From the NCBI GenBank assembly GCA_035479015.1, contig DATIJC010000002.1, positions 9,777 to 73,776 of the forward strand: a stretch of 64,000 nucleotides of DNA, given 5' to 3'. Within the stretch, counting starts at the first letter, position 1. Every line of letters begins with the position of its first letter. Below, in pieces: positions 15,977 to 58,698 of this stretch. The position numbers and the translations under genes were made by a program. The stretch comes from Patescibacteria group bacterium. GTDB taxonomy: Bacteria; Patescibacteriota; Microgenomatia; UBA1400; UBA12028. The notes under the pieces are model-generated. The model was given only the letters and a program-made list of their open reading frames with translations. It did no database searches and was not told the origin of the DNA.

Positions 15977-16008
15977 GTCATTCCTGCGAAGGCAGGAATC
16001 CAGTCAAC
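15977..16008. repeat. Palindromic REP/MITE-like element, copy A (GTCATTCCTGCGAAGGCAGGAATCCAGTCAAC)
   Basis: Perfect hairpin with an 8-11 bp stem and a GAAG loop; it is intergenic. The consensus recurs at 16698, 38254, 47821, 58609 and 58668. Confidence 0.7.
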
Positions 16009-16018
16009 AAAGATCCAA

Positions 16019-16684
16019 TTATGCTATCTGTTTTAAGATATTCTTTCTTGTATATTCGACATCCCTGGATTTAGTCGCCAAATCGAGCATGATATTTACA
16101 CCATCTATTATTCCTAACCTGTTACGCACGATATACGCAACCCCATCAATTGCAATGGAAAATGGTTTTATTTCTTCTCCAAAAATTGATGCTACAATCT
16201 TTTTTATTTCGTTCTCCGAAAGAGTGGTGTCTATATCAATTTGAACATGTGGTAACCAATATTCAGCTCGCTGATCACTTGTTTTTTCAATCGGAACCAT
16301 TTCAATCATCGGATCTTTCCAATTGCTAGTATCACCTACGAAAAACCATAACCCTTCATCATTGGATGGTTCAATATATAAATGAAGTTTAGGATTAATG
16401 GACCGAATTAGTCTTTCTTGTTCCAACTTTTGTGATTCAACTTTGTAACAAAAGCCTACGTGGTTCAATCTAACGATAGCTTTTTTTTGAGTCAATTCAC
16501 GTATAAGTTGTTTGACACGTTTTATTTCAACAAACTGATCTTTAAGAATACTTTTATGAGCCAATAACAACGGCATGATTTCACCAACTGGCTTAAGATT
16601 TTGTTCGTCAATAAAATTCGCCAAATTAGTAGTGGGAAGCTCTTCTGAAATTTCGTTTAACATCCTTGTTAATTTCGATTGCAT
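16019..16684 (-). CDS. Hypothetical protein inserted between the ABC ATPase and FtsX permease genes
   Basis: 221 aa soluble protein with no recognised motif. It is flanked on both sides by inverted copies of the palindromic element. Confidence 0.5.
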   Translation of the reverse strand: MQSKLTRMLNEISEELPTTNLANFIDEQNLKPVGEIMPLLLAHKSILKDQFVEIKRVKQLIRELTQKKAIVRLNHVGFCYKVESQKLEQERLIRSINPKLHLYIEPSNDEGLWFFVGDTSNWKDPMIEMVPIEKTSDQRAEYWLPHVQIDIDTTLSENEIKKIVASIFGEEIKPFSIAIDGVAYIVRNRLGIIDGVNIMLDLATKSRDVEYTRKNILKQIA

Positions 16685-16697
16685 ATTGAGTTACTTA

Positions 16698-16728
16698 TTG
16701 TCTGGATCCCTGCCTTCGCAGGGATGAC
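16698..16728. repeat. Palindromic REP/MITE-like element, copy B (inverted orientation, compensatory variant)
   Basis: The plus strand reads ttgtctggatccctgccttcgcagggatgac. Stem changes T to C and A to G are paired, so the hairpin is conserved. Confidence 0.7.
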
Positions 16729-16737
16729 AGACATAAA

Positions 16738-17430
16738 TTATTTTATTTTCTTGTGTTTTGAGTCCGAAAGGATTTTTCCATCTCTCACGATAATCTGACG
16801 CTTGGCGTGCTGGGCGATCTCCTGTTCATGTGTTACCAGCACAATGGTTGCGCCTTCATCTTTGTGCAGTTTGCCAAAGAGCTCGATAATCTCATCGCTA
16901 GATTTACTATCCAGATTCCCCGTCGGTTCGTCAGCAAAAATGATAGCAGGCTTAGTGACTAGTGCTCTAGCAATGGCGACACGCTGTTGTTGACCGCCGG
17001 AGAGCTGCGAGCGGGTGTTATGTATCCGATCTCCCAAGCCTACACGCTCTAATTCTTCCCGCGCCCGGCGTTCACGCTCCGCCGCAGAGACATTGCCATA
17101 CAAAAGGGGAAGTGCAACATTCTCTAGTGCTGATACTTTTGGGAGTAAATTAAATTGCTGGAAGACAAAACCGATCTCTCTATTTCGAAGACCCGCTAAT
17201 TGCGTTTCATTATATTTTTGCACTTGTTTATCTTTGAGCCAGACTTCACCCACTGTTGGGACATCTAACATACTCATAATATGAAGCAGCGTGGACTTGC
17301 CCGATCCCGAAGGTCCCATGATACTTACATACTCTCCGGCATCAATATCCAAGCTCAAGTCATCCAGGGCATTAATTTGTTGATCACCAAGACTATAGAT
17401 CTTGGAAACATGAACGAGGCGAAGAAGCAT
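16738..17430 (-). CDS. ABC transporter ATP-binding protein (MacB/LolD-like)
   Basis: Contains Walker A (GPSGSGKST), the ABC signature (LSGGQQQRVAIARAL) and Walker B. Confidence 0.85.
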   Translation of the reverse strand: MLLRLVHVSKIYSLGDQQINALDDLSLDIDAGEYVSIMGPSGSGKSTLLHIMSMLDVPTVGEVWLKDKQVQKYNETQLAGLRNREIGFVFQQFNLLPKVSALENVALPLLYGNVSAAERERRAREELERVGLGDRIHNTRSQLSGGQQQRVAIARALVTKPAIIFADEPTGNLDSKSSDEIIELFGKLHKDEGATIVLVTHEQEIAQHAKRQIIVRDGKILSDSKHKKIK

Positions 17431-17438
17431 ATATGATC

Positions 17439-18473
17439 CTATTTAGGAATTGCAATCGAATCGGATTGTGAAATTCCGGAAAGTATCTCAATCGCGGTGT
17501 CGCCTTCCAGACCAATTTGAACCTCTTGTTCTTTTGGCTTGTTTGGATCAGATGTTTGTACTCGCACATATGTTTTCCCGTCATGGGAAACCGTAGCGTC
17601 AGCGGGAACTGTCAATACATTGCTTTTTTTGGCAACCTCAATATGCATGCTGCCTGTAAGACCTAGGCGGAACATTCGGACATCCTCACCCAGCACCGGC
17701 GCACGGACAACAAAGACTGTTCCCCCACTCGTATCCGACGAAATGCTTGCAACGTAGGCAATTTTTCCCAAAGTCGTAGTAAAATCTTTCTCCTGATATG
17801 CATCAAGCTTCACCGTCACTGGCATACCAGACGAGACAGATCCAATATCAGATTCATCTACTTCGCCGACGAACTCTAGTGACATTGGGTCCACGATCGT
17901 AAATGTGTCCGCAGCAGTGACATACTCACCAGCTACAGTGACAGGAGATTTTACTAAGATCCCATCTATCGGAGACACCAGTGAACTATTTTTTATTGCA
18001 ATGCTTTGAAGCTGTACTCCTATGACAGCATTATCTAAAGATAGTTGCTGCGTTTTTGCCAGCGTCTCTAGCGTACTGGTGATCGCGCTATCTTTTCTAT
18101 CTTTCAGTCCTTGCTCAAAGGACAACCGGTTCGTCATGTAGTCATTTAATGATTTCTGCAAACTCGCCCGCAGGTCTGCCGTATCGATTGTTGCAATACG
18201 CTGTCCCTTTTTGACGCTGTCACCTTCTTGTGCTCCCACCCAAACGATTTTCCCCCCGCCCAAAAACTTCAAGTCACTTGTACGCGCGGCGCTGACACGT
18301 GCCGTCACATCCAAGGTCTTTACCACATCCTGACGGATTGGATTTTGATATGCAAAGAGTACCTCTGGCTTTTTCCGCAATCTGCCCATCACAATAACGA
18401 GCAGAATAAGTGCAATTAGTACAAGGTACCAGCGTTTTTTTAAGAGCGAAACAATCTTTGAAAAAATTGCCAT
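17439..18473 (-). CDS. Efflux transporter periplasmic adaptor subunit (HlyD/MacA family)
   Basis: 344 aa protein with an N-terminal TM anchor followed by coiled-coil, lipoyl and beta-barrel adaptor architecture. It sits in an operon with the ABC ATPase. Confidence 0.7.
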   Translation of the reverse strand: MAIFSKIVSLLKKRWYLVLIALILLVIVMGRLRKKPEVLFAYQNPIRQDVVKTLDVTARVSAARTSDLKFLGGGKIVWVGAQEGDSVKKGQRIATIDTADLRASLQKSLNDYMTNRLSFEQGLKDRKDSAITSTLETLAKTQQLSLDNAVIGVQLQSIAIKNSSLVSPIDGILVKSPVTVAGEYVTAADTFTIVDPMSLEFVGEVDESDIGSVSSGMPVTVKLDAYQEKDFTTTLGKIAYVASISSDTSGGTVFVVRAPVLGEDVRMFRLGLTGSMHIEVAKKSNVLTVPADATVSHDGKTYVRVQTSDPNKPKEQEVQIGLEGDTAIEILSGISQSDSIAIPK

Positions 18474-18491
18474 AACGCGTTATTATACCTC

Positions 18492-18800
18492 GTGACCAAG
18501 TTTAGCGCATACTACCAACAGATGTGGGAAGAGAACGAAACCGCCTTGCGGAAATTTCAAGATGCCCACGATACCTACAAAGCGAACCAGCGTAATACTG
18601 GGGCCAAAACTGCCTTTGATACTGTAGGTAAAGAAGTTCTTGAATTGATTCACACCTGGGACCAGCGCTTGTGTACACAAATGGAACGAGGTAAAAATGG
18701 GGTCTTCTCTTCTAAAGTCTCCGAGAAATTCTGGGCCGAAGTAAAGAAAGATTTCCCTCTTATTGATCTCGTCGGCGTCGAGGTTTCATTCGCGCAGTAA
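18492..18800 (+). CDS. Hypothetical protein
   Basis: 102 aa ORF with no motif. It overlaps a convergent membrane-protein gene by about 40 nt. Confidence 0.35.
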   Translation: MTKFSAYYQQMWEENETALRKFQDAHDTYKANQRNTGAKTAFDTVGKEVLELIHTWDQRLCTQMERGKNGVFSSKVSEKFWAEVKKDFPLIDLVGVEVSFAQ

Positions 18801-19833
18801 CAAAAAATAACAGCAGTGCAGCCCAGTAGTAATGTGATGCGAGAACGCCATTCCAAAACGTGTGTGGCGCAATCTGAAGATATGGAAATTGGATATACCA
18901 CAAAATAAAAGACAGTACGCAGGCAGCAGTACGCAGTGAAAAGACATTTTTTCTCAATTCAAAAAAAATAAGAACATATATTGGAAAGAGCATGACGAAA
19001 TAGTGCTGCCATAGAACCGGTGAGAACAAAAAGATTGCCAACACCCACAGCTTCTTACCCTTTTTCAAAAATGCGACTGCTATAAATAAAAGCGAGACTA
19101 AAGATGATAGATATGGAAAAGCAATATGTAACCGGCACAGAGTACTTCGCAGTGACTGGTTGTAGTAATCCAAATTTGATGCACAGGAGTTTGTACTAAA
19201 CAGCGGGATGAATGTATTCCGGACGAAATACTCATACCAACTGATTTTCATAAAGGCAAACGTTAGGACAGTTATCAACAAGCTAAAAAATATAAACTGG
19301 ATGAACACTTTTGGTTTCGATAAGAAAAAAATGCCCAACGGAAAAAAGAAAGTCTTCAGGATCCCCAAACCAACTACGGATAAAACTGACAGTGTTTGAT
19401 TTTCAAACAGCAAAAATACTGTCACCAACAGTGCACCAAGCAGTGCAGGTTGCCCCATCAGTAGACTAAATCGGGTTACAAACGCACTAAAAAGAATAGT
19501 TGCTGACAGCAATATCCATTTCTTACTTAAAAGTAAGCAGATCAAATACCCGGCTGCAATATTTATGATTAAAAATGTCAACTGAGCAGAAGGCAATTTT
19601 AAAAAGGAGAACGGCAGATACAGTAAAAATGTGGACGGTGCACCCAGTGTCGCCGTACTGTTAGTGCTATAGGGATTTTGACCAGCACGGATAGACCCAA
19701 CTAACTGTATGTAGCTATCAAAGTCCTGTAAATTTCTCGAACCGGAAAAAAAATGTAGTCTGGAGATAAGAATCCCCATCACTATCACATGGAGAATAAA
19801 CAACGATACTACGAACCTATTGGCCACTCGCAT
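18760..19833 (-). CDS. Polytopic membrane protein (possible glycosyltransferase-like or DUF2029-like)
   Basis: 357 aa protein with many TM helices and an N-terminal loop. Confidence 0.5.
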   Translation of the reverse strand: MRVANRFVVSLFILHVIVMGILISRLHFFSGSRNLQDFDSYIQLVGSIRAGQNPYSTNSTATLGAPSTFLLYLPFSFLKLPSAQLTFLIINIAAGYLICLLLSKKWILLSATILFSAFVTRFSLLMGQPALLGALLVTVFLLFENQTLSVLSVVGLGILKTFFFPLGIFFLSKPKVFIQFIFFSLLITVLTFAFMKISWYEYFVRNTFIPLFSTNSCASNLDYYNQSLRSTLCRLHIAFPYLSSLVSLLFIAVAFLKKGKKLWVLAIFLFSPVLWQHYFVMLFPIYVLIFFELRKNVFSLRTAACVLSFILWYIQFPYLQIAPHTFWNGVLASHYYWAALLLFFVTARMKPRRRRDQ

Positions 19834-19969
19834 ACGTGCTTTTTATTTCCTTTGGGTGTGCGGTTAACCACACACTTATAAAAGCACCTGAGAGTAAAAG
19901 CAAGAGTGAGACCACCGAAGCAATCACAATGAGGTACTCACCTAAGAAATCAACTGGAATCCTCTTCAT
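19817..19969 (-). CDS. Small single-TM protein, translationally coupled to the S53 peptidase gene (ATGA overlap)
   Basis: Reads MKRIPVDFLGEYLIVIASVVSLLLLLSGAFISVWLTAHPKEIK. Its start overlaps the peptidase stop codon. Confidence 0.3.
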   Translation of the reverse strand: MKRIPVDFLGEYLIVIASVVSLLLLLSGAFISVWLTAHPKEIKSTYASGQ

Positions 19970-21117: not shown

Positions 21118-21174
21118 ATTATGTTCATTGTATCGAACGTAGTTACAACTAGTCAAATGGAATAGAATGGAGCT

Positions 21175-23124: not shown

Positions 23125-23969
23125 TACTCAAAAACTTTAGCTTGAATGAAGTAATTTGCTAGCTGATCTTCTATCAGATTTACACCCAACTGCGATGGGT
23201 GAATATGATATTGAGGCTCAATATATTTTAGTAAACCACTCCCATTTCTATCCTTTGTCAAATGATAGACATCCACCAACGGTATGTTGTGATCCTTGGC
23301 AAATTTAATATGGTTCTCAATATAGAGGTCCCGTTCAGTAGCCCATTCATTTCGTTGTGCGGGAGTGAGTTTTACTTCTCCCACTCCGTACATCGTGTGT
23401 GACGGAGCTATGGTCGCCAAAAAAACTATTAGACTATTCGGCCGCTCACGCACCAATATTCTCATGGCAGTCTTCAAAGACTCATTGGCTTTGTCTATCC
23501 CTTCTGTGGTTCCCAAATATGAAAGTGGGTTATATCCAAATGATTCAATGACGATAATGTCGAATGATTTGGAGAGTACCGCATCATACAGTGCTCCCGA
23601 CTCTGTACTCTTAGAGAGTAGACGGTCCTGTAAACTAGCGACATTTGATGCCGGCGCACTTTCATTCCGGACAATTAGTCCAACATCTAGGTATTTATCT
23701 TCTATATCTTTGCGAAACAGATCAGTATATGGACCCAGTGCGGCGGTCATAGAGTCGCCCAAAAAAACTACTGTGTAATCATGCTTCTTGGGTAACTTTG
23801 GCGCTGTATATAGCACGAAGGGTAGCTCCGGCTTTGGCGCGGGCGTGACGGATGGTACAGGGATATCAGTTTGGACACTCGGTCCTGGATATGTTCGTGG
23901 CTGTCTGAGTAACAGAACCACCGCAGCCAAACTAACTATGACAATCGTAAGAACGGTGTATCTTCGCAC
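23124..23969 (-). CDS. SGNH/GDSL-type hydrolase, secreted
   Basis: Has an N-terminal TM/signal segment and a GDSM block (VVFLGDSMTAALG). Confidence 0.6.
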   Translation of the reverse strand: MRRYTVLTIVIVSLAAVVLLLRQPRTYPGPSVQTDIPVPSVTPAPKPELPFVLYTAPKLPKKHDYTVVFLGDSMTAALGPYTDLFRKDIEDKYLDVGLIVRNESAPASNVASLQDRLLSKSTESGALYDAVLSKSFDIIVIESFGYNPLSYLGTTEGIDKANESLKTAMRILVRERPNSLIVFLATIAPSHTMYGVGEVKLTPAQRNEWATERDLYIENHIKFAKDHNIPLVDVYHLTKDRNGSGLLKYIEPQYHIHPSQLGVNLIEDQLANYFIQAKVFE

Positions 23970-24668: not shown

Positions 24669-24935
24669 ATGCCGTTTATCGTCTATATCCTGAGGACTAG
24701 CAGGGACACCCTCTACACCGGACAGACAAATGATCTCAAGAAGCGGATGGAAGAACACCGAAGTAAAACCTCCAAGTCATCCAAGTACATGCGCGCCTTT
24801 GGACCATTTGAGCTTGTTCACAGCGAAGAGTTTGCAACACGCAGTGAAGCTATGCAGCGCGAGGCAGAAATTAAAAAACTGACGAAGATTCAAAAAGAGA
24901 ATTTGATTAGTAACGAAAAATATTTGTTACAATAA
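24669..24935 (+). CDS. GIY-YIG nuclease family protein (UPF0213-like)
   Basis: Contains FIVYILRTSRDTLYTGQTNDLKKRMEEH, matching the GIY-YIG core. The ATG at 24669 lies within the longer track ORF 24342-24935. Confidence 0.65.
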   Translation: MPFIVYILRTSRDTLYTGQTNDLKKRMEEHRSKTSKSSKYMRAFGPFELVHSEEFATRSEAMQREAEIKKLTKIQKENLISNEKYLLQ

Positions 24936-33109: not shown

Positions 33110-34752
33110 TGAATGTCTTTGACAATTATCTGAAGACTTTTTGACCCATTCCAATGGTTCACCTGCAGGTGACCAATCAATGACACGGTGGGGGAATTTG
33201 AAAAGTGTTCAAGTTCCCTCCCGTGTCCAAACCAAAGCAGATCACAGTCCGCAGTGCGCAGTTTTAAGTGTTTTCCTTCTTTTCCGATAATTTTTGCACT
33301 GTCGATTTTGACTTTATCCATTTGAAATAGTGGTTCGCGGTTACCGGGACCAAACGGCTGCATGACCGTCAATCCTTGCGCCACTTCCATCGTTTGGAGA
33401 GTTGTTGGCAATACAGAATCCACATCAATCAATGCTGTCAGCAGTGATACATCAATTGTGTTTTTGGCATGTTGGCGCAATTTTTGCGAAAAGACTTCAA
33501 TCTGTGCAGTTTGCAACTTCAATCCAGCCGCCATCGGATGGCCTCCGATTTCCATAAGATCAGACTTTACTTCACGCAGCAGATTTGTGATATGTACACC
33601 TGCGACACTTCTGGCTGATCCTTTCGCTGTTTCACCTGAGATCGCCAACACTATCGAGGGTTTATAAAACATTTCAGTGAGACGACTGGCGATCAGTCCT
33701 ATCACGCCCTCATGAAATTGATCGCTGGCTACGATGATCACACTCTCCTCTTTCCACGTCTGTCGCTTTGCAAGTGCAATCTCATACATCTGTGTGGTCA
33801 GATCCTGACGGGTGATGTTGGTATCGTGCAATTTCCCAATTAGAACCGCCGCTTTACTTCTATCCTTCGTACACAGTGCCCGCAGAGCATCCAGTGCATT
33901 TCCCAGACGCCCCATCGCATTAATGCGCGGAGCAATAGCAAAATTGACTGCGTACGTATCAACCGGTTTTCCTTTTAACCCGGCAGCCTCTATCAGCAAT
34001 TGCAAACCAATCCGCCTCGTTTTCTGCAACTGTTCTAAACCAAATTTAACAAATGATCTATTCGCGTCCGTGAGAATTACTTGGTCAGCAATCGTCGCAA
34101 TCGCACAAAGATCGAGTAAATCTTCAATATTTTTTGATGCTTGGATTTTGGATTTTGGAATTTTAGCAAGTTCTCTTGCTAACATCCACGCTACAGTTGT
34201 GCCACAGAGCTTGGTCGTATGAATAATGCAATCAGCGGGTGGCAGTTTATCCTCAGGTTCGTGATGGTCAGTGAGTATTGTGAAGACCCCAACATCGGCA
34301 AGCCTCTGCCACTGCGCCTCAGCTACGATCCCATTGTCTACTGAGATTAAAATAGAAGGCTTATTCTTTGCCAGAATTTCATCTAAAGCTTTTGTAGACA
34401 AACCATAACCATGCTCTTTACGGTCAGGAATAAACGGTAACACACTAAAGCCGATGTTGTGCATCGTTTCCCACAGTACCGTGGTCGCACATACGCCGTC
34501 ACAATCATAATCACCAAAGATAATTATTTTTTCTTTGTTTTCCAAAGCCTCTTTTAGCCGCTCTACTGCTTTGTTAACTTGTTCTTTATCGATGCCAACA
34601 TCCTCTAGAGTCAAATCTATCGGATCTTTTGGGTGCAAAAAACTTTCTTTATCAGTAATGCCCCTATTTTTTAATAGGATGGAGAGTATTTCTTCATTAG
34701 TTTTTGGCTCTTTTTTTGAAAGCAGATTCCAGTTCATACAAGATGCTATCAT
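33106..34752 (-). CDS. recJ: Single-stranded-DNA-specific exonuclease RecJ
   Basis: Contains DHH (IIFGDYDCDGV...DHH) and DHHA1 motifs (GGHPMAAG). It carries an in-frame heptamer repeat at 34141-34164. Confidence 0.85.
   Translation of the reverse strand: MIASCMNWNLLSKKEPKTNEEILSILLKNRGITDKESFLHPKDPIDLTLEDVGIDKEQVNKAVERLKEALENKEKIIIFGDYDCDGVCATTVLWETMHNIGFSVLPFIPDRKEHGYGLSTKALDEILAKNKPSILISVDNGIVAEAQWQRLADVGVFTILTDHHEPEDKLPPADCIIHTTKLCGTTVAWMLARELAKIPKSKIQASKNIEDLLDLCAIATIADQVILTDANRSFVKFGLEQLQKTRRIGLQLLIEAAGLKGKPVDTYAVNFAIAPRINAMGRLGNALDALRALCTKDRSKAAVLIGKLHDTNITRQDLTTQMYEIALAKRQTWKEESVIIVASDQFHEGVIGLIASRLTEMFYKPSIVLAISGETAKGSARSVAGVHITNLLREVKSDLMEIGGHPMAAGLKLQTAQIEVFSQKLRQHAKNTIDVSLLTALIDVDSVLPTTLQTMEVAQGLTVMQPFGPGNREPLFQMDKVKIDSAKIIGKEGKHLKLRTADCDLLWFGHGRELEHFSNSPTVSLIGHLQVNHWNGSKSLQIIVKDIH
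34141..34164. repeat. Tandem heptanucleotide repeat (AAAATCC/AAATTCC), in frame within recJ
   Basis: The plus strand reads ttggattttggattttggaatttt. On the coding strand it encodes LAKIPKSKIQAS. Confidence 0.6.
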
Positions 34753-37759: not shown

Positions 37760-38152
37760 TTAAACAATTCCACGATTTTTTAAGTCTACTTCCGATTCAA
37801 ATTCTAAATAGTTTTGCGTTAATTCCTCTCCACTTTGAATGTCTCTAGTTGCCACCAGGTATGCTTCAGTATGTGTAAGCACCTGAGTTAAAGTGGCGTT
37901 TTCCTCATGGTTAATAAATTTTGAAACATCAAAGTCTACATGCCAAAGCTGTGATGGCTTGTCAAAAAATCCCCACCACCGAATTTCCTGTCTCTCTTCG
38001 TTGAGTAGAGAATCAAATTGTTTTTGAGAAATATTTAAGTCGAGGAGAGGACTCGCTGTATATACAACTTGTCCTTTTTCTATACTTTGGTCCGCAAATA
38101 ATCCAATACCATGCAGTGGAGATTTATCCAATTTGTATTTGACATGGATCAT
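37760..38152 (-). CDS. SET domain protein (putative lysine methyltransferase)
   Basis: Contains GIGLFA...KGQVV, INHEENATL (in place of NHSCxPN) and TRDIQSGEELTQNY, matching the SET fold signature. Confidence 0.55.
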   Translation of the reverse strand: MIHVKYKLDKSPLHGIGLFADQSIEKGQVVYTASPLLDLNISQKQFDSLLNEERQEIRWWGFFDKPSQLWHVDFDVSKFINHEENATLTQVLTHTEAYLVATRDIQSGEELTQNYLEFESEVDLKNRGIV

Positions 38153-38253: not shown

Positions 38254-38273
38254 GTCATTCCTGCGAAGGCAGG
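38254..38273. repeat. Palindromic element, truncated left half (copy C)
   Basis: Reads gtcattcctgcgaaggcagg then diverges. A second degenerate piece, ctggatcc...cgggatgac, lies at 38324-38370. Confidence 0.5.
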
Positions 38274-38439
38274 TTTACGAATACCCTCGCGGTAAATCCA
38301 TGCAATAAATATTCAATTCGTTTCTGGATCCTGGACAAGGCTCCTAATCGCCGCCTTTACCGGGATGACACACAACAACACAGTATTGTACCAAATCAAT
38401 ATAGATCGACCATCTTTCGACTTTGCTCAAGATAATTGA

Positions 38440-47657: not shown

Positions 47658-48715
47658 AGTTTTTAACTCAGACTTTTCTTTTCTTGTGGATATTTTTTAT
47701 CCCTTCTTCCCTTGCCTACCACTACAATGTACAGACCGGATTAGTACACGGAATTTTGGTGGATTATCGAATCCCTATCATTAGTGCGGATGTACTATTT
47801 TTTATTGCGTTTTTAGCATTGTCATTCCTGCGAAGGCAGGAATCCAGTCAACTAAAAAAACTTCTTGTGTTTTCTATCGGTTTTACAATGATCTTTCAGT
47901 TTTGCCTTGCTCTTTTTCAAACTATCTTTCAGCGCTCTTTATTTGGTTATCTTCCCTTTGGTGAAGTGGATTATCACTCACCCGCCATCGCTAAAGGCGT
48001 ATTCAACGGTTTCATTTATAAACTTCCATATGGGACAACCGTTCATCCAAATATTCTTGCCGGCTTCTTTGTAGTGTGTTTTCTGGTTCTAGCAACATAC
48101 AAAACAAAGTTTCTTAAGTACTTTTTTTTAATGACACTATTAATCATCTTTCTCACACAATCCTTATCTGCACTTATCGCACTGCTAGCGGGAATACTTG
48201 TTTTCTTAATCAATAAAAAATATCTAAAACTTGCGAAGATTCTTGTAATTTTATTTGGATTAGGAGTTGTGTTTGTTTTATCCAATATTCGATATACCAA
48301 ATACGATATACCCTCGCTCGCTCGCCGTGCGCAGTTGGAACAATTGGCCTTTAGCATGATTCATGATCATCCGCTAACCGGGGTCGGCTGGAACAACTTT
48401 ACGCTAGAGATGGATAACTACGGCTATGTGCGTGGAAATGTACGTTTCCTACAGCCTGTGCACAATATGTTCCTATTATTGATTAGTGAGCTGGGGATTT
48501 TCGGCATAGTGCTCGTGGCAATTTGGATCAAACTTATTTGGAAAGCGAATCAAATCACACTTGTGTTTTTGAGCGCCTTTACCGTGCTTAGCAGTTTTGA
48601 CCATTACCTGCTCACGCTCACCACGGGCCGCATGTTACTTATCCTGAGCCTCGTCGTGATAAAATTAGTCTCGTCTCGCCCCCATAGTTCAATGGATAAA
48701 ACAGGAGACTTCTAA
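47654..48715 (+). CDS. O-antigen ligase-like (Wzy_C) polytopic membrane protein
   Basis: About 10 TM helices and a large loop containing RRAQLEQLAFSMIHDHPLTGVGWNNF. It contains an in-frame palindromic element at 47821-47852, and its 3' end overlaps tRNA-Arg. Confidence 0.55.
   Translation: MKFLTQTFLFLWIFFIPSSLAYHYNVQTGLVHGILVDYRIPIISADVLFFIAFLALSFLRRQESSQLKKLLVFSIGFTMIFQFCLALFQTIFQRSLFGYLPFGEVDYHSPAIAKGVFNGFIYKLPYGTTVHPNILAGFFVVCFLVLATYKTKFLKYFFLMTLLIIFLTQSLSALIALLAGILVFLINKKYLKLAKILVILFGLGVVFVLSNIRYTKYDIPSLARRAQLEQLAFSMIHDHPLTGVGWNNFTLEMDNYGYVRGNVRFLQPVHNMFLLLISELGIFGIVLVAIWIKLIWKANQITLVFLSAFTVLSSFDHYLLTLTTGRMLLILSLVVIKLVSSRPHSSMDKTGDF
47821..47852. repeat. Palindromic REP/MITE-like element, copy D, in frame inside a CDS
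   Basis: Identical 32-mer gtcattcctgcgaaggcaggaatccagtcaac. It is translated as LSFLRRQESSQL. Confidence 0.7.
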
Positions 48716-51135: not shown

Positions 51136-51666
51136 ATGACTGATTTTGCGTACTTCGGCGGTGGCTGCTTCTGGTGCACGGAAGCTATCTTCCAGCGCCT
51201 GCGTGGTGTGGTCTCTGTAATTCCCGGTTATGCTGGAGGCGACATGGACAACCCAAATTATGAAGCGGTTTCTGATGGCGACACGGGGCACGCTGAGATG
51301 ATCCGCATTGAATTTGACCCATCGGTCATTTCTTATGAACAACTTTTAGATGTCTTCTGGCATACACATGATCCGACGACGAGGAACCAGCAAGGGGCTG
51401 ATATCGGAGAACAGTACCGCTCAGTTGTACTTTTTGCCAATGAAGAACAAAAACGAGCTGCAGAAAAATCAAAGCAAGATCTTGCCAATTCCGGTGAATA
51501 TGAAAAACCAATTGTGACTGAAATCAGACCATTTGAAAAATTCTTTGAAGCAGAAAACTATCACCATGACTACTACGAAAAACACAAAGAGGCGCCTTAC
51601 TGTCAGATTGTCATCAATCCAAAATTAGAAAAGTTTAAGAAACGCTACAAAGAGTTACTCAAGTAA
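51136..51666 (+). CDS. msrA: Peptide-methionine (S)-S-oxide reductase
   Basis: Contains the GGGCFWC active site. The ATG at 51136 follows a GAGGTG ribosome-binding site; the track ORF starts at a GTG at 51127. Confidence 0.85.
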   Translation: MTDFAYFGGGCFWCTEAIFQRLRGVVSVIPGYAGGDMDNPNYEAVSDGDTGHAEMIRIEFDPSVISYEQLLDVFWHTHDPTTRNQQGADIGEQYRSVVLFANEEQKRAAEKSKQDLANSGEYEKPIVTEIRPFEKFFEAENYHHDYYEKHKEAPYCQIVINPKLEKFKKRYKELLK

Positions 51667-52293
51667 ATGGGCATGGTCGTTAAAAGTCAGGATTTCCCAT
51701 CGCTTGTCTTCTCTATAAGAGCAGACTGTTATCCCTGTATTCGTTGTCTGCAGTCCTTCTACTAGTAGATCAAATTGTCTGGATGAAAATTCCGGACCAA
51801 AAAGCATTAGACCCAGTAAGGCTCGGATAACATGACCATGGCTCACGAGCACGATATTTTCTTGATTCCTCATTTCGATCTGTCTGAGTTGTTGGGCGAT
51901 ACGCTTGATAAAGTCCCAAGTATTTTCTTCATTACTGTAGTGCCAATCGGGATCATCGCTGTGTTTTGCAATCGCTTTCCAAATATGATGGACATCAATG
52001 TGTTTTTTCCCAGCAGTTTCAGACGGGCCCTGCTTCTCAATCAGTTTTTCATTGAACTCGATTTCTTTACTAACCGCTGCTGAAATCTCTTTAGCTGTCT
52101 GCTCGGCCCGCATTGCAGTACTGGAGATAATCAAATCCACAGGGGTGTGTAGAAAACGCCCCGCTACTTTTTTTGCCTGTGATAATCCAGAGGGACTGAG
52201 TGGCATTTCATTCGTTTGATGAACACGCGCCGCGTTCCCCTCACTCTCTCCATGGCGAACTATGTATAAGGTCATAATGTATGGATCCCACAT
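51655..52293 (-). CDS. Histidine phosphatase family protein (phosphoglycerate mutase-like)
   Basis: Contains an RHGESEGN motif (LYIVRHGESEGN). Confidence 0.65.
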   Translation of the reverse strand: MWDPYIMTLYIVRHGESEGNAARVHQTNEMPLSPSGLSQAKKVAGRFLHTPVDLIISSTAMRAEQTAKEISAAVSKEIEFNEKLIEKQGPSETAGKKHIDVHHIWKAIAKHSDDPDWHYSNEENTWDFIKRIAQQLRQIEMRNQENIVLVSHGHVIRALLGLMLFGPEFSSRQFDLLVEGLQTTNTGITVCSYREDKRWEILTFNDHAHLLE

Positions 52294-52342
52294 ACTTGAG
52301 ATTGCATCTCAGGTTTTGGGATGACACTGCCTGCGGCTAGTG

Positions 52343-53911
52343 TCACTTTGCAATATCAACAGCCCGCATCTCACGTATAACTGTCACCGTGACTGTACCT
52401 GGATAGGTAACTTCATCTTTGATACGATCCTTGATCTGATGCGAGAGCACTACTGCATCCTCATCACTGGATTTCTCGGCATTGAGGATCACGCGGATCT
52501 CACGTCCAGCTTGGATCGCGAAGGCTTCACGGACTTTGTCAGATGACTTGGCGATCTCTTCTAACTTGGTCAAACGCTTTACGTACTCTTCGTAGTTCTC
52601 GTAACGTGCACCAGGACGTGCTCCAGAAATCGCATCTGATATATAGACAATCATTGCTTCTTTACTTGAAAATGGCTTGTCTTCATGGTGCTGCTCTACA
52701 CAATCAATGACTGCCTCTGGCATGTGATATTTTCGAAGCAGGTTCACACCCAATTCAATATGGCTGCCTTCTTCATCCATAACCACCTTACCAATATCGT
52801 GCAGTAAACATCCTAGGCGGACAGTGTCCACGTTGGCACCAATTTCTTTAGCAATCGCGATACCGATTTTTGTCTCTTCTAGAGTGTGTGCAATCATGTT
52901 CTGGCCATATGAGAAGCGGTATTTAAACCGTCCCAGCATTTGCACTAAATCATGAGGCATATTAAATACACCTACCATGTGGCAGAGTTTCTTGCCTTCC
53001 TCGAACATGATCTTATCGAGCTCTTCAGCGACTTTTTTCACCACCTCTTCAATACGTGACGGCTGAATACGGCCATCCTTTACTAACCGTTCAAGGGCGA
53101 TGCGGGCAATTTCACGCCTCACTGGATCAAAACATGATAGGCGGACTGTGCCTGGTTGATCATCGAGGTCGACGTCTACACCAGTCACCTGTTCAAAGGA
53201 GCGGATGTTGCGGCCGTCTTTACCGATGATCTTGCCTTTGACATCTTCACTGGGCAATTCAACGACCGAGACAGTGTACTCACTCACATAACTCGTAGCG
53301 CCGTGCTTCATAGCGTCAACCAAGATCTCCTTGGCCTGTTCATCAGCCTCTTCTTTGGCTTTATTGACCTTCTCCTGGATCATCTCTGCCATTTCACGCC
53401 CCAAGCTCCTCTCCAAGTTCTCTAAAACCTGAGTCTTTGCAGCCTCGCGGGTAAGCCCTGCAACCTGCTCAAGCTTGGTAATCAAACCCTTGCGTTGTTC
53501 ATCCAATTGGGTTGAGCGGTGATCAAGATCACCTTTGCGCTTTTGCAGTTCTTTGTCGCGGTCATCCAACGTGCGCAGTCTTGTCTCTACGCTAGCGAGT
53601 TTTTGATCAATTGATCGCTGAGCCTGGGCTACTTCCTCGCGGACCGATTTCATCTCACGTTCTGCCGATTCACGGATAGTGAGGGCTTCTGCTTTGGCTT
53701 CGACAATGATCTCGCGGGAGCGGGCTTGGGCTTCACGGGCTGCCGCATCATTCATTGCGGCTTGTGCTTGTGGGTCCACTTTTGGCGCTACGACCAGCTT
53801 CACTTGAGTCGAAACGGGCTTTGAAGGTCGAACTGGCGGAAGTGTTTTTCCATCGGTTGCTGGTCCCAATAGACTTGAAAGTCTGGTAAAAAATGACATA
53901 AATCCTTTCAA
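52343..53911 (-). CDS. rny: Ribonuclease Y
   Basis: 522 aa protein with an N-terminal TM helix, a coiled-coil, a KH domain and an HD domain (LLHDIGK). Confidence 0.9.
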   Translation of the reverse strand: MKGFMSFFTRLSSLLGPATDGKTLPPVRPSKPVSTQVKLVVAPKVDPQAQAAMNDAAAREAQARSREIIVEAKAEALTIRESAEREMKSVREEVAQAQRSIDQKLASVETRLRTLDDRDKELQKRKGDLDHRSTQLDEQRKGLITKLEQVAGLTREAAKTQVLENLERSLGREMAEMIQEKVNKAKEEADEQAKEILVDAMKHGATSYVSEYTVSVVELPSEDVKGKIIGKDGRNIRSFEQVTGVDVDLDDQPGTVRLSCFDPVRREIARIALERLVKDGRIQPSRIEEVVKKVAEELDKIMFEEGKKLCHMVGVFNMPHDLVQMLGRFKYRFSYGQNMIAHTLEETKIGIAIAKEIGANVDTVRLGCLLHDIGKVVMDEEGSHIELGVNLLRKYHMPEAVIDCVEQHHEDKPFSSKEAMIVYISDAISGARPGARYENYEEYVKRLTKLEEIAKSSDKVREAFAIQAGREIRVILNAEKSSDEDAVVLSHQIKDRIKDEVTYPGTVTVTVIREMRAVDIAK

Positions 53912-54091: not shown

Positions 54092-54565
54092 TTACCTTTT
54101 TTTAGCTGTTTCGTCAAGGAAACGGCTAATCTCACTTGAGGAGAAACCAGAGGAGAACAGAACCTGGTATGTCTTTGCCCGCTGCAGGTTGGACGGTTGT
54201 TTTGCAATCCTGCCTTTCGCCTTTTGTAAGCGTTTTTCCATAGCCGCAAACAAATCTTCTTCACTAACCTCTCTGAGAGCATTCGAGATATCTTCTTTAG
54301 AAATGCCGAGACTAGAAAGTTTGGCTTTGATATATGCCTGCCCCTTCGCTTTGGAGGAAATCAGAGAATGGACGAAGCTGGCTGCTGTGCGAGAGTCATC
54401 TATATAGCCAAGACGTTTATATTTTTCCACCAGCACATCAATGATATTTTCGTCTTCACCGTCATGAAGTTTTCGCTGTAAGTATCGGCGCACTTCTAGC
54501 TCGCTTCGGTCACGGATCGAAATATATCTACCAAGTAAGTTTTCCAAACGGACTATTTCACTCAT
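54092..54565 (-). CDS. recX: Regulatory protein RecX
   Basis: 157 aa helical-repeat protein immediately downstream of recA with a 4-nt overlap. Confidence 0.65.
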
Positions 54566-55683
54566 TCTTCTTTTGGACTTTCGGACTCTTTGATTTCCAT
54601 CGGCGCCCCGGCCTTGCCATCTTTTATACGCTGGCGGATGAGCGCGTCCAACTCGTTCATGAGCGCCTGATTTGCTTCTAATTCAAGCTTCAATGCATCA
54701 CGACCCTGTGCCAAAGTTTTGTCCTTGTACTTATAGAAACTCCCGCTTTTTTGTAAAATTCCCATCTCTACGGCGACGTCTACGATACCACCACTCTTAC
54801 TTATTCCCCCTACGTTCATGATATCAAACTCTGCCATACGGAATGGCGGTGCCATTTTATTTTTCACTACTTTGCCACGATGCCGTCCGCCGATCACCAC
54901 TTCACCTTCTGTTATGTTACCAATCTTGCGCATATCTACACGGGCCGATGCATAGAATTTCAATGCCTGTCCACCAGTAGTCGTTTCCGGATTACCAAAC
55001 ATGACGCCAATTTTCATGCGGATTTGGTTGGTAAAGATAAGTAAGGTCTTACTTTTGTTGATTGCTGCAGTGAGCTTGCGCATCGCTTGACTCATCAAAC
55101 GAGCCTGTGCACCCATGACGGCATCTCCCATCTCGCCTTCGATTTCTGCCTTTGGTGTAAGTGCTGCGACGGAGTCGACAACGATGACATCCAAACCACC
55201 GGATCGAACCAGCATCTCTGTGATCTCCAGTGCTTGTTCACCGTTATCAGGTTGAGAAATTAATAAATTATCTAAATTCACACCGATCGCTTTAGCGCGC
55301 ATCGGATCCAGTGCGTGTTCAGCATCAATAAAGGCTGCCGTGCCACCTTTTTTCTGTGCCTCAGCGATCACATGCAGACACACTGTGGTTTTTCCTGATG
55401 CTTCAGGTCCATATACTTCTACGATACGTCCGCGCGGGAAACCGCCGATACCAAGTGCAAGATCTAACGCTATAGAACCAGTGGAGATAGCGGGAACCAG
55501 TTGCTCCGCCTGCATCTGCTCACCCAATTTCATGATGGATCCCTTGCCGTACTGTTTTTCAATCTGCTGCATGGCAATGCGTACAGCCTCCATACGTTCA
55601 CTGTTTACATTAGAAACTGGCTGCCTGTTTTGTGTTGGTTGCGGCGCTGGCATAGAAACCTTTCTCTTTATGTTCGGGCTCAT
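54562..55683 (-). CDS. recA: Recombinase RecA
   Basis: Contains Walker A (GPEASGKTT), [15 protein letters not shown] and the L1/L2 loops. Confidence 0.95.
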
Positions 55684-55707
55684 CTAAACACAGAAAGAAA
55701 TTACTGA

Positions 55708-55723
55708 CAAGTAGCGGTATAAT
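55708..55723 (+). promoter_or_regulatory. Motif CAAGTAGCGGTATAAT (likely tRNA-Pro promoter -10; resembles the shared AAGTAG..GGTA motif)
   Basis: TATAAT lies 52 nt before tRNA-Pro. The motif sits in the recA divergent intergenic region. Confidence 0.25.
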
Positions 55724-55775
55724 CTCATTCTTGCCAATGCGGAAGCGGGCTTGCCCGCCGAAGTCTTGACGCAGG

Positions 55776-55846
55776 CGGGGTATAGTTTAATGGTAGAATT
55801 CGTGGCTGGGGGTCATGAGGCGAAAGTTCGATTCTTTCTACCCCGA
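55776..55846 (+). tRNA. tRNA-Pro (GGG)
   Basis: Manual fold gives C1-G72 acceptor (CGGGGUA/UACCCCG), anticodon stem CGUGG/UCAUG (two G-U pairs), loop CUGGGGG with G37, and T-arm GAAAGUUCGAUUCUUUC. Confidence 0.75.
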
Positions 55847-55850
55847 CTTA

Positions 55851-56120
55851 TTATCGGCGCACTGGCCGAAGCAACTGTAGTGCTATCGTGCATGCAAAAT
55901 CGCGGATATCCAATAATTCTTTCTCACTCATGTTTTTTCCCAAGCGATCTATTACATCCTTAACTTGACTACTATATTCAAGATTAAACAATCTTCCTTC
56001 TTCACCTTGCTGGTCAAGAGAATCCTGGAAAAATTGGAGTAGTTGCTCCTTGGTTACTGACTCGCCACCTGCAACATGTTTAACGAGCTCTTCACCTGTA
56101 AAAATTTGGTTCATATTCAA
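55851..56120 (-). CDS. Hypothetical protein
   Basis: 89 aa ORF. Confidence 0.3.
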   Translation of the reverse strand: MNMNQIFTGEELVKHVAGGESVTKEQLLQFFQDSLDQQGEEGRLFNLEYSSQVKDVIDRLGKNMSEKELLDIRDFACTIALQLLRPVRR

Positions 56121-56148
56121 TAACGAGAACGATTTGCAACACCTCTTC

Positions 56149-56334
56149 TTATCCTCTCACGGCGCCAAGACTCAATACAGATCCTTTTCCATATTTTCTT
56201 TCCAAATCAGATCTAACCGCATCTTTCGCGTCCACAGCTTTTCTAGCTTCTACTGGAAAAGTCGACACATGTTCTTTTCCATTAATTTTATACTTTGCGG
56301 CAATAATAAAGTTTACTCTTTCTTCAGAAGACAT
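56149..56334 (-). CDS. Hypothetical small protein
   Basis: 61 aa ORF. Confidence 0.3.
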   Translation of the reverse strand: MSSEERVNFIIAAKYKINGKEHVSTFPVEARKAVDAKDAVRSDLERKYGKGSVLSLGAVRG

Positions 56335-56343
56335 ACTTTCCTT

Positions 56344-57522
56344 TCATGCCCAAGTTTTAATGAGTGTTGCTACTGACTGAGATTGTAACGTATACGCCCC
56401 GGTACTTGCAGGAATAAAGATAGACGCACCCTTTTCAGCATGCAGCGAAAGATCACCAACGATTAGATCAATACTGCCATCTTTGACAAACAAATGATGG
56501 AAACTGTCATCTGTATTCGTATCCGCTTCTACTCCCCTATACTCCTTACCTATTTGCAGCAGCGATGATTTGTAATACAAAGAATTAAAAAGCCTGGCTT
56601 TTTCCAATCCACCACTGCTTATTTCTTCCATTTTACGGACCAGCGTGGCGGGATCATTGTGAGTAGTCTCAGCATCCAGTGCTGCAAAATAATCATCAAT
56701 ATGGATCGGCCGGATTGTGCCATCGTCTGCGATCTTACCTTTATCAAAAGACCGTAGCGTACAGTCTTTATCCATGACGTTTAGTTGTACTTCGTAGACA
56801 ATATTCCCGTCGGGGATATCTGCTCCTTCTTCCCACGAATGATGTGTTCCCCCATCGGATAAATCTATTAACGTATCTGCTTCTATATTTATCTCGTTTA
56901 CAAATTGATAAGGACTGTTTTCTTGAATTGTTTTGGCAAGCTGCGCTCTTGCATCAACAACTGCGTACTGCGCACTGCGGACTTTCTCACTAAGTTCTAA
57001 AGCTACGGTTTCTATAGATTTACATACTTGTCTATATTTTTCCAAATCAGATCCAGTTTTTAATCCTAGCGTTGCTTTTCCTTTTTCAAAAAAGTACCAA
57101 CTCTCAGGTTTTGGCTTCCAATTCGCTGTAGTATTGCCCGGTCGCACATGCACCTGAAATGAGTTCCCCTTTGCTTGCGTAAACTTGATAAGCACGCGCA
57201 TCCGGTTGCCAAAACTTTCTGCGTTTCTCTTCCCCAAAACTTTTTCCGGATCACTATCGATAAGTGATTGCAGCGAGAAAAGAGCGTGTGAGTTGCCAAA
57301 AATTTCCTGTGTCAGGCCATCACTTGCATTGCCCAATTCAATCGGCAACTCATTAGAGTTAGTAATGGATGACAAACTGGAATCCTGTGCCAATTCATAT
57401 GATTGTCCAATTGTTAAACTTTGCAAATTTGCAGGCAAGTTCTTAAATCCAGCGATATACTTTCCACCCCAGGTAGGTTGAGGAATTAGTTTTGGAACAA
57501 TAAGGTATGGTTGAATTTGCAT
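56344..57522 (-). CDS. manA: Mannose-6-phosphate isomerase, class I-like
   Basis: 392 aa protein. Its N-terminal Y..WGGK pattern and SFQVHV block resemble ManA (YAWGSK, LSIQVHP). It sits in a hexose-phosphate gene cluster. Confidence 0.5.
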   Translation of the reverse strand: MQIQPYLIVPKLIPQPTWGGKYIAGFKNLPANLQSLTIGQSYELAQDSSLSSITNSNELPIELGNASDGLTQEIFGNSHALFSLQSLIDSDPEKVLGKRNAESFGNRMRVLIKFTQAKGNSFQVHVRPGNTTANWKPKPESWYFFEKGKATLGLKTGSDLEKYRQVCKSIETVALELSEKVRSAQYAVVDARAQLAKTIQENSPYQFVNEINIEADTLIDLSDGGTHHSWEEGADIPDGNIVYEVQLNVMDKDCTLRSFDKGKIADDGTIRPIHIDDYFAALDAETTHNDPATLVRKMEEISSGGLEKARLFNSLYYKSSLLQIGKEYRGVEADTNTDDSFHHLFVKDGSIDLIVGDLSLHAEKGASIFIPASTGAYTLQSQSVATLIKTWA

Positions 57523-57523
57523 G

Positions 57524-58594
57524 TTACTTCTTTAACTCTGCTTTGAACCAATCGACCCACAGATTGGGCGTTGGGTTTTGACCATTGAGTAGTGCCAGGT
57601 AAAACGTCGTGTATGCACCAAATGCCATCAGCTCAAAAACTTGCGACAACTTTGTCTTTGACTTTAATACAAGTTCTCGTGACTCACATTTGTTCTGCTC
57701 GATTACCTGCGCGGTGAGTTTCATCCGCTTACTGTTACCAACTGCGTATAGTGATGAATTTACCAGCAGGAAAAGTAAGTTAACATCGTTTGATTTGGGG
57801 AAAGCTAAACCTTCCATTAAATGATGATTCATTTCCGGAACCACTCTGTATTCTGAATATACTTTGGCGGTTTCGTTAAAGGCGTTGGCTACGACATGTG
57901 ACGCACCTTCCAGATGCTCTGCCGCCGTAATAATGGGTAAGCGCTCTACGGATTCAAAGGCCAACAATTTTGCTAGATTTTTATCCTGAGCGATCTCCAC
58001 ATTATTTTCTAACTGAACCTGAGCCACTACCTGTAAGACTTCTTCAAAATCTGTTCGCGATAGTGAGAGTAAACCTGTGCGCTCAAGCAGTGCGATTTGA
58101 CCAAACACAGAGTACCCAAGTGCATAACGCGGCACATTGCATGGGTTAAAAGTAGCCGTGTAGATATACCCGGGATAATTATTTGTTTTCAAAAAGTCTG
58201 CTAGCTTTCCGCCCGATGCGAGCCCGGTAATCTGAGCACCTTTCTTCTTGGCATCTTCACCAGCCGAAAGAGTTTCTTCTGTGTTACCAGAATAACTGGA
58301 CAGCACTACCAAAGTTTCACTGTTTACCCATGCAGGGAGTGTGTAATCGGGCACGCTAAAAACCGGAACTTTTAGCTCGTCTTTAAACAGTGTTTGAATA
58401 ACATGTGTTCCGTACGCAGATCCACCCATACCCGCTACCACGACATTTTTAACGATCTTGTAGGTTTCGGGAAATTTAATCCCGCGCGTCTCATCCCATG
58501 CTTGTTTAATTTGACTGCCCAATTCTTCTATAGATCTCAGTCCATTATTGGTATCCAGTTTTTTGATCTCATCACGATCGTCTAATATGCTCAT
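57524..58594 (-). CDS. Bifunctional phosphoglucose/phosphomannose isomerase (SIS domain)
   Basis: 356 aa protein with tandem SIS domains of the archaeal-type PGI/PMI pattern. Confidence 0.65.
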   Translation of the reverse strand: MSILDDRDEIKKLDTNNGLRSIEELGSQIKQAWDETRGIKFPETYKIVKNVVVAGMGGSAYGTHVIQTLFKDELKVPVFSVPDYTLPAWVNSETLVVLSSYSGNTEETLSAGEDAKKKGAQITGLASGGKLADFLKTNNYPGYIYTATFNPCNVPRYALGYSVFGQIALLERTGLLSLSRTDFEEVLQVVAQVQLENNVEIAQDKNLAKLLAFESVERLPIITAAEHLEGASHVVANAFNETAKVYSEYRVVPEMNHHLMEGLAFPKSNDVNLLFLLVNSSLYAVGNSKRMKLTAQVIEQNKCESRELVLKSKTKLSQVFELMAFGAYTTFYLALLNGQNPTPNLWVDWFKAELKK

Positions 58595-58608
58595 AAGTCT
58601 CCTTCTGT

Positions 58609-58639
58609 GTCATCCTTGCGTAGGCAAGGATCCAGACAA
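58609..58639. repeat. Palindromic REP/MITE-like element, copy E (compensatory variant gtcatccttgcGTAGgcaaggat)
   Basis: The hairpin is retained through paired substitutions. Confidence 0.65.
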
Positions 58640-58667
58640 TAAGTAACTCACTATTGTATTTTATTTG

Positions 58668-58698
58668 TTGCATGGATTCCTGCCTTCGCAGGAATGAC
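58668..58698. repeat. Palindromic REP/MITE-like element, copy F (inverted relative to E)
   Basis: The plus strand reads gttgcatggattcctgccttcgcaggaatgac. Confidence 0.65.

Follow-up and report, generated by a model that had tools for sequence, protein, structure and literature searches.

Locus and repeat units

The analyzed window is a 64-kb stretch of contig DATIJC010000002.1 from a Patescibacteria group bacterium (GCA_035479015.1), a metagenome-assembled genome (MAG) of the candidate phyla radiation (CPR), and it harbors a family of short hairpin repeats that we assign to the CGTC-1 class of repetitive extragenic palindromes (REPs). The window is a core housekeeping region carrying uvrA, uvrB, recA, recX, recJ, lexA, rmuC, and aminoacyl-tRNA synthetase genes, and the UvrB proteins nearest to its own (73–74% identity) were found in Woesebacteria-like genomes. 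Ten repeat units were identified in the 64 kb, comprising six short copies and four long-hairpin forms, which are arranged as two dimers with facing tails (38254–38369 and 58609–58698), one inverted pair around a gene (15977–16728), and four singles. The units and the enclosed gene are given below, with scores from the covariance model described in the next section.

10221..10286, + strand: long form type A, two hairpins, 66 nt; in frame in uvrB.
12199..12256, − strand: long form type B, two hairpins, 58 nt; in frame in miaA; 15.7 bits.
15977..16003, + strand: short repeat with TGTC tag, stem ATTCCTGC/GCAGGAAT, loop GAAG, and tail CCAG; 49.5 bits, E 2e-11; left end of a cassette, with the macB-like start codon 12 nt downstream and the orf221 stop codon 15 nt upstream.
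16019..16684, − strand: orf221, 221 aa, cargo gene between inverted hairpins.
16702..16728, − strand: short repeat, stem variant ATCCCTGC/GCAGGGAT; 50.7 bits, E 9e-12; right end of the cassette, with the ABC-ATPase stop codon on one side and the orf221 start codon on the other.
38254..38299, + strand: interrupted short repeat, with about 21 nt (38274–38294) inside the 3' arm; partial model match at 38260–38273; left half of a dimer adjoining tRNA-Gly.
38324..38369, − strand: long form type B, GTCATCCCGG TAAAGGC...GCCTT..CCAGGATCCAG; right half of the dimer with 38254.
47821..47847, + strand: short repeat, the same in sequence as the copy at 15977; in frame in a wzy-like (O-antigen-ligase family) open reading frame (ORF).
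52281..52346, − strand: type A long form of 66 nt; flanked by the rny stop codon and a histidine-phosphatase gene.
58609..58635, + strand: short repeat, doubly compensated stem ATCCTTGC/GCAAGGAT, loop GTAG; 44.2 bits; left half of a 90-nt tails-facing dimer.
58672..58698, − strand: short repeat, tail CCAT; 39.6 bits; right half of that dimer.
Repeat unit sequence, version with the T:A stem: TGTCATTCCTGCGAAGGCAGGAATCCAG.
Repeat unit as a single-stranded DNA (ssDNA) oligonucleotide: TTGTTGTCATTCCTGCGAAGGCAGGAATCCAGTC.

An earlier reading of the letters alone (the sequence-only reading) had proposed six short copies of a dispersed palindrome, and all six were recovered at the claimed sites, far above chance. 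The 32-mer consensus was matched without a mismatch at 15977 (+) and 47821 (+) and with two at 58667–58698 (−), while shuffles of the window gave no match; the stem pattern ATYCYTGC-N4-GCARGRAT was found at five sites against 0.02 expected. The copy at 38254, which had been called truncated, is instead interrupted in its 3' arm; the 21-nt segment that splits the arm beside tRNA-Gly reads TTTACGAATACCCTCGCGGTA. The supposed degenerate piece at 38324–38370 is a member of the long-hairpin subfamily (38324–38369) with the same termini. The other three long forms lay beyond the earlier list, and all four were detected by repeat finding and short-word searches of the window.

Seven of the ten units are intergenic, lying in very short spacers between neighbors that are co-directional throughout. 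The remaining three are intragenic and in frame (uvrB, miaA, and the wzy-like gene). The expectation of mostly intergenic copies between convergent or tandem genes was therefore correct for the tandem arrangement, but no unit lies between convergent genes. For the unit at 52281–52346, the program-called start (52293) of the histidine-phosphatase ORF at 51655–52293 (−) falls within the hairpin unit; the ATG at 52275 (MTLYIVRHGESE) is the more likely start of this gene and leaves the unit wholly intergenic.

Anatomy of the repeat unit

All intact window copies begin with the tag TGTCAT..., and their stems read ATTCCT...AGGAAT or ATCCCT...AGGGAT. The tail is CCAG in four short and three long copies and CCAT at 38297–38300, 58672–58675, and 52281–52284. 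Compensation is complete in both stem variants (ATCCCTGC/GCAGGGAT and ATCCTTGC/GCAAGGAT) on direct reading of the sequence. When folded as ssDNA, the units gave a predicted hairpin of 8 bp with a 4-nt loop (z-scores of −3.7 to −6.3). Of the hairpin of 8–11 bp described previously, the 8-bp stem was retained, but the longer pairing is contributed by the flanks of individual copies and does not belong to the stem. One flanking sequence, ACAATAAGTAACTCA, is common to the 36-nt spacer of the 58609–58698 dimer and the inner flank of the copy at 16702.

A covariance model built from copies in other genomes only recovered the five intact window copies at E = 1e-8 to 1e-11, scoring 40–51 bits on one strand and 10–12 bits on the opposite strand. 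This one-strand score, together with the asymmetry of tag and tail, gives the repeat units a defined orientation.

The long forms have the ends of the short copies, TGTCATCCC...GGGATCCAG (also written GTCATCCC...GGGATCCAG), around a longer and variable inner hairpin. They also possess a small additional hairpin upstream, and the TGTCA tag lies within its 3' arm. The inner stems of the type A pair (10221–10286 and 52281–52346) differ by three compensated pairs, TGGCG/CGCCA at 52281 vs TGAGA/TCTCA in uvrB.

Distribution and covariation across bacteria

Other genomes were scanned (one genome per species) with the pattern GTCATYCYTGC-N4-GCARGRATCCAG, and the 27-mer was found nearly unchanged in at least 120 loci from more than 20 phyla. 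The matches listed came from Nitrospirota, Chloroflexota, Planctomycetota, Desulfobacterota, Hydrogenedentota, Omnitrophota, and Binatia, from Alpha- and Gammaproteobacteria (including Rickettsia and Xanthomonadales), and from several CPR lineages. The copies are thus not restricted to the window, and the family cannot be described as a REP element of one genome or lineage. In 926 kb of the matches listed, 260 hairpins of this type were counted vs 1 in the reversed-sequence control. In 95 copies taken from other genomes, GTCA almost always follows a C or T. The commonest arrangement among the loci listed is the tails-facing dimer (66 of 81 close pairs), which is also seen in the window; the dimer spacers range from 7 to 124 nt with variable sequence, and single units are common.

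Two positions in each stem arm were left unspecified in the scan pattern. Among the matches listed, 116 of 133 copies were consensus at these positions, and the other 17 comprised 13 with compensated changes, three with G·T wobbles, and one mismatch. A second test was anchored on the unpaired tag and tail only (GTCA-N18-TCCAG), with chance matches kept, and yielded 63 distinct sequences with many different yet paired stems. In this set, 74 cells had changed on both sides vs 20.7 ± 3.8 in shuffles (none of 500 reached 74), and 86.7% of the cells were paired vs 24–45% with slid partners. The compensatory stem changes reported from the window therefore hold both within it and across bacteria, and the covariation strongly supports a dispersed palindromic family under selection for the hairpin.

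Three further results concern how the repeats travel. No excess of 2–6 nt direct repeats was found at any offset of 66 dimers, and flush dinucleotides matched in five of the 66 against about four expected; the target-site duplications sought here on the earlier proposal are therefore absent. All-against-all clustering of 3,923 ORFs from 120 loci yielded no protein family linked to the hairpins besides a small cluster of Ssn-like GIY-YIG proteins. Among 2.9 million viral contigs, the pattern was found in 18 stretches of 14 contigs, and the repeat family is not obviously phage-borne.

Two side observations were made in these searches. In many other phyla, complete hairpins are preceded, 15–20 nt upstream, by half of the 5' arm (GTCATTCCYGC; L021, L041, L046, L053, L066, L086, L090, L108, and L111), and these half copies may be the footprint of a cutting or copying process acting on the elements. 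One viral contig, IMGVR_UViG_3300036760_001528 (44.9 kb; L169, L174, and L165), holds eight pattern copies while nearly all the others hold none, and it may represent a prophage region or bacterial DNA that was misclassified.

Relation to known repeat families

The window repeats are members of the CGTC-1 class, an already described pan-bacterial family, and not a new kind of element. Two super-families of prokaryotic REPs have been distinguished by their tag, GTAG or CGTC (Di Nocera, De Gregorio & Rocco 2013, BMC Genomics 14:522; PMC3733652). CGTC-1 units have a CGTC or TGTC (or CCTC) tag, an 8-bp stem starting A:T, T:A ("almost invariably"), a 4-nt loop, and a CCA tail; they mostly form inverted dimers, and they have no dedicated transposase (PMC3733652). 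Genes of replication and repair stand out for intragenic copies, among them uvrB of Rickettsia, and CGTC-1 was equated with dRS3 of Neisseria and RPE-6 of Rickettsia, as was CGTC-4 with RPE-4. CGTC REPs were listed for five phyla, mainly Alphaproteobacteria (PMC3733652).

The window repeats agree with this description in tag, stem, loop, and tail, in their inverted dimers, in their mostly co-directional siting, and in their in-frame copies, one of which also lies in uvrB. The short copies show the 8-bp stem and GAAG loop, every tail contains CCA, and the two dimers and the gene-flanking pair are accompanied by no transposase found in the window. The differences are the host, which here is a CPR MAG, the C:G at the second stem position of two window copies, and the four long forms; the published stems of 8–9 bp and loops of 4–5 nt do not accommodate these two-hairpin units.

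The second relevant system is that of dRS3. About half of the dRS3 copies in Neisseria belong to a longer oriented sequence, NTS, CGTCATTCCCGCGMAVGCGGGAATCYRG (Chenal et al. 2025, Nat Commun 16:2388; PMC11893778). NTS-like hairpins, termed SRM ("Ssn-related motifs"), flank small GIY-YIG genes (SsnA, cd10448) in many phyla, and the arrangement in Neisseria is NTS-ssnA-NTS (PMC11893778). SsnA binds the hairpin only in ssDNA, requires the asymmetric tag and tail, does not bind RNA, and cuts a few nucleotides upstream, and it lowers transformation by NTS-bearing DNA (PMC11893778). Recognition of ssDNA hairpins by Ssn GIY-YIG proteins was described for Neisseria and Wolbachia.

The window repeats match NTS at 25 of 28 positions, and two of the three differences constitute one compensatory pair. 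They also resemble NTS and SRM in tag, tail, orientation, wide distribution, and the layout of repeat, gene, and inverted repeat. The likeness to dRS3 that had been noticed earlier was thus borne out, but it is not superficial, as was then assumed: CGTC-1 includes dRS3, and the resemblance is a genuine homology of design. Two differences stand out. Stem position 6 is T:A in the window vs C:G in NTS/SRM, and the enclosed gene is not ssnA but encodes a predicted VOC (vicinal oxygen chelate) fold. Because of the T at stem position 6, all window copies escape the published SRM pattern: the string HGTCWYN(0-2)YYVSBRHN(0-5)WNVSBRGN(0-2)RNCYNB matched none of the ten, and its single match in the window, at an unrelated site (23822–23850), compares with 0.23 expected. 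The literal dRS3 motif ATTCCC-N8-GGGAAT likewise misses every window copy, with one stem pair changed and compensated.

dRS3 is also a precedent for a role as an integration or recombination target, as it serves Neisseria filamentous prophages according to a passage of PMC11893778 that cites this use, and the ATTCC...GGAAT arms look like a core site, such as a site-specific recombinase or IS110-type element (IS, insertion sequence) might use. We consider this explanation extremely improbable for the window. Pfam scans of the window revealed no integrase, IS110 element, or prophage, the compensatory changes indicate selection for a hairpin and not for two protein-binding half-sites, and a role as a target would leave the multiplication of the repeats unexplained.

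The 27-mer corresponding to Rickettsia RPE-6, GTCATTCCTGCGAAAGCAGGAATCCAG, was found in five loci (L017, L029, L066, L100, and L110) and is one loop base off the window consensus; its equivalence to RPE-6 (Ogata et al.) rests on PMC3733652 and not on the RPE-6 consensus itself. Like the window copies, RPE-6 is inserted in frame in protein-coding genes, including uvrB. The host phylum differs, and the intragenic copies of the window add little or no protein length. NCBIfam models of the RPE domains did not match a translated Rickettsia copy.

The consensus of the Francisella small RNA FtrB (Rfam RF02748) holds GUCAUUCCCGCGUAGGCGGGAAUC, a CGTC-1 hairpin; a small hairpin lies ahead of it and overlaps the GUC tag with its 3' arm, an arrangement also seen in the long forms of the window. 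Three window segments (15955–16023, 58587–58664, and 58638–58722) matched this model at 22–28 bits against a gathering score of 66, in the hairpin module only, and the window copies are not FtrB genes; only tRNA families reached the Rfam gathering score in the window. Action at the RNA level, with the hairpins as mRNA 3'-end stabilizers, attenuators, or parts of small RNAs, would be compatible with recognition of the same hairpins in DNA, and several observations point in this direction: the position of the seven intergenic copies in short co-directional spacers, some G·T pairs in the stems, the hairpin within the FtrB model with its weak window matches, and the argument of Di Nocera et al. 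for REP transcription (PMC3733652). We nevertheless regard it as unlikely. The units occur in equal numbers in both orientations relative to transcription, the hairpin is not followed by a U-tract, translation runs in frame through three copies, and the most conserved positions are the asymmetric tag and tail, which are what SsnA, an enzyme without RNA binding, requires on ssDNA (PMC11893778).

GTAG REPs and their paired forms (REPINs) are likewise short oriented palindromes, often in inverted dimers, that present ssDNA hairpins to a small nuclease. The inverted dimers of about 90–120 nt in the window are REPIN-like, and mobilization by a REP-associated tyrosine transposase (RAYT), a domesticated enzyme of the IS200/IS605 Y1 type, was weighed on this ground. 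It is disfavored and very unlikely. The features proper to that system, namely the GTAG tag, the HUH/Y1 enzyme, and RAYT genes flanked by REPs, were not found in the window, where the tag is TGTC ((C/T)GTC in the family) and where no Y1 transposase domain (Y1_Tnp) occurs among about 60 ORFs scanned. No RAYT gene was found flanked by CGTC repeats in any species (PMC3733652), and the sole family recurrently adjacent to the hairpins among the 120 loci listed is the Ssn-like GIY-YIG family. CRISPR, integron attC sites, and intrinsic terminators were dropped on anatomy, as the units are single and dispersed and lack arrays, an R-box, and a T-tract.

Putative recognition by an Ssn-type nuclease

We consider it probable that the window repeats act as oriented DNA hairpins of the CGTC-1 class that are recognized as ssDNA by an Ssn-type nuclease, by analogy with Neisseria and Wolbachia. 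Four parts make up each unit: the unpaired tag YGTCA at the 5' end, a stem of 8 bp whose first pair is A:T, a loop of 4 nt (GNAR in most cases), and the tail CCAG, likewise unpaired, at the 3' end. When the DNA becomes single-stranded during replication, repair, or uptake, the hairpin with its tag and tail would be bound by a small GIY-YIG Ssn nuclease and nicked a few nucleotides 5' of the tag, as the published cleavage by SsnA suggests (PMC11893778). Nicking would restrict the recombination of incoming ssDNA bearing the motif, and it could plausibly drive the spread of the repeats and of repeat–gene–repeat units. The cognate enzyme would be encoded beyond the 64-kb window, with a specificity matched to the T:A-containing stem. 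Ssn-like GIY-YIG genes were found within about 100 bp of hairpins in three loci of other genomes (L035, flanked on both sides, L069, and L104), which independently reproduces the published association of Ssn with these hairpins.

Several observations weigh against this explanation. A six-frame translation of the 64-kb window contained no Ssn-like (cd10448-like) gene. The window has one GIY-YIG gene, as follows.

24669..24935, + strand: single-domain GIY-YIG gene, 88 aa, adjoining tRNA-Gln, without flanking hairpins; UPF0213-like.

The best matches of its product were the UPF0213 structures BH0048 and EF2693, and no hairpins were found in 128 kb of flanks around 29 metagenomic relatives. Changing the palindrome while keeping the hairpin abolished SsnA activity (PMC11893778), and the window copies, with T at stem position 6, miss the SRM search sequence; Ssn recognition of the T:A variant therefore stays putative. 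The gene at 24669–24935 is unlikely to be the cognate Ssn, given its UPF0213-like sequence, its being missed by Ssn-like queries, and its hairpin-free relatives, and it probably stands outside the repeat system.

The assignment extends a hairpin-repeat system with a recent biochemical basis, the ssDNA site of the Ssn nuclease, to the Patescibacteria (CPR). The genomes of CPR bacteria are tiny, and these organisms are believed to rely on DNA uptake. A near-invariant 27-mer in more than 20 phyla was nevertheless missed by the published motif, and the family is thus larger than catalogued.

The orf221 cassette

A syntenic relative (L130; UvrB 74% identical) has the gene order uvrB, AI-2E transporter, miaA, radical-SAM gene, macB, ABC ATPase, and membrane-fusion protein, and no hairpins were found in its 22 kb. 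The gap between the two ABC-transporter genes, macB and the ABC ATPase gene, measures 4 bp in this relative vs 773 bp in the window, where it is filled by a hairpin, orf221, and an inverted hairpin. The cassette is therefore an insertion, and since the copies in the comparable part of the window are all absent from the relative, they were gained in this lineage.

No Pfam family was assigned to orf221. Its C-terminal ~150 aa are predicted to adopt a fold like that of VOC/glyoxalase proteins and methylmalonyl-CoA epimerase (model pLDDT 91.5), and its homologues form an unannotated family of ~230 aa in CPR and other metagenomes. A transposase or nuclease of the repeats was rejected for orf221 on account of this predicted fold and of the homologues, which had no hairpins nearby in seven other loci. 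On this confident structural model, orf221 is cargo and not a mobility enzyme. Several features of the family were recorded in passing. H75, E128, and D150 are among the invariant residues, and H146 comes close to invariance. The homologues found in CPR genomes are usually the second gene of a pair, and their neighbors include AbiEii, Fic, WYL, and small GIY-YIG genes in a setting resembling defense islands (L122–L128).

The cassette bears on the reading of the repeats as MITEs (miniature transposable elements with inverted repeats) in the classical sense, that is, as deletion derivatives of an IS with a DDE transposase and terminal inverted repeats that move by cut-and-paste. The dimers end in inverted GTCAT.../...ATGAC, one pair encloses a gene, and the cassette is inserted relative to L130. 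We find this reading highly improbable, and the MITE half of the original proposal does not stand: the 66 dimers lack target-site duplications (with flush dinucleotides near expectation), the spacers differ in sequence and in length (7 to 124 nt), single units are common, the stems covary, unlike a conserved inverted repeat bound by a protein, and the enclosed gene encodes a predicted VOC fold and not a transposase. Pfam scans of about 60 window ORFs gave no transposase or integrase domain.

In-frame copies and the spread of the repeats

Five of the six reading frames of the repeat unit are open, which helps explain how its translation is tolerated. In uvrB, the 66-nt unit lies in the hypervariable linker of CPR UvrBs that precedes the 'KVAYLHS' motif, where it encodes VTQAASRVIPEPGVQRQVSGIQ. 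The closest homologues lack the unit, and a native 13-aa linker is replaced by 22 aa from it. In miaA, a variable linker holds the 58-nt unit, translated as VTASAVIPVKASSSLIRDP, with zero net length change relative to two relatives, in whose DNA no hairpin was found at this linker. The unit at 47821–47847 encodes the loop LSFLRRQESSQL between the predicted transmembrane helices 2 and 3 of the wzy-like protein, again with no added length. As far as comparison with distant homologues (43–74% identity) allows, these three units look more like replacements than simple insertions.

A near-identical two-hairpin unit of 66 nt (65 of 68 nt) occupies the same place in the uvrB linker of a Cerribacteria MAG (L129, 11481–11545). 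The uvrB genes of L129 and the window are 68% identical in DNA, and L129 is a non-sister lineage and not the closest relative; the shared unit suggests either that it was acquired independently at a single tolerated site or that the segment was transferred. The insert of CPR UvrBs between 'YLND' and 'KVAYLHS' spans ~10–80 aa, compared with only ~3 residues in Bacillus UvrB, and a long version of ~60 aa is common to many CPR UvrBs (homologues P0060–P0179, aligned around window positions 10190–10300).

These copies raise a further alternative, in which repeats with the T:A stem (GTCATTCCTGCGARRGCAGGAATCCAG) make up a specificity class of their own across bacteria, would depend on a nuclease that may fall outside the cd10448 Ssn family, and would spread by short-patch template-directed replacement in place of insertion. 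Such replacement would explain the missing target-site duplications, the miaA and wzy-like loops overwritten without a gain in length, the 66-nt uvrB unit shared with L129, and the VOC-fold gene carried into an operon. We regard this combination as quite unlikely. The uvrB unit, the missing duplications, and the related observations bear on how CGTC repeats spread, but they do not establish a new mechanism. They are clean natural experiments on that spread: a relative keeps the empty site of the cassette, copies lie in frame in three genes, and the dimers are without target-site duplications.

Other features of the window

A gene for a SET-domain protein (130 aa; 37760–38152, −) adjoins tRNA-Gly. 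Tandem 7-nt repeats (TTTGGAA/TTGGATT) in three to five units were observed at 3890–3920, 12575–12607, and 34141–34163, in three minus-strand genes and in the same orientation. Their hosts are a pyruvate:ferredoxin oxidoreductase gene, miaA, and a recJ-like gene. The miaA repeats are translated as KFQIPKSKIQ and are no insertion relative to two relatives.

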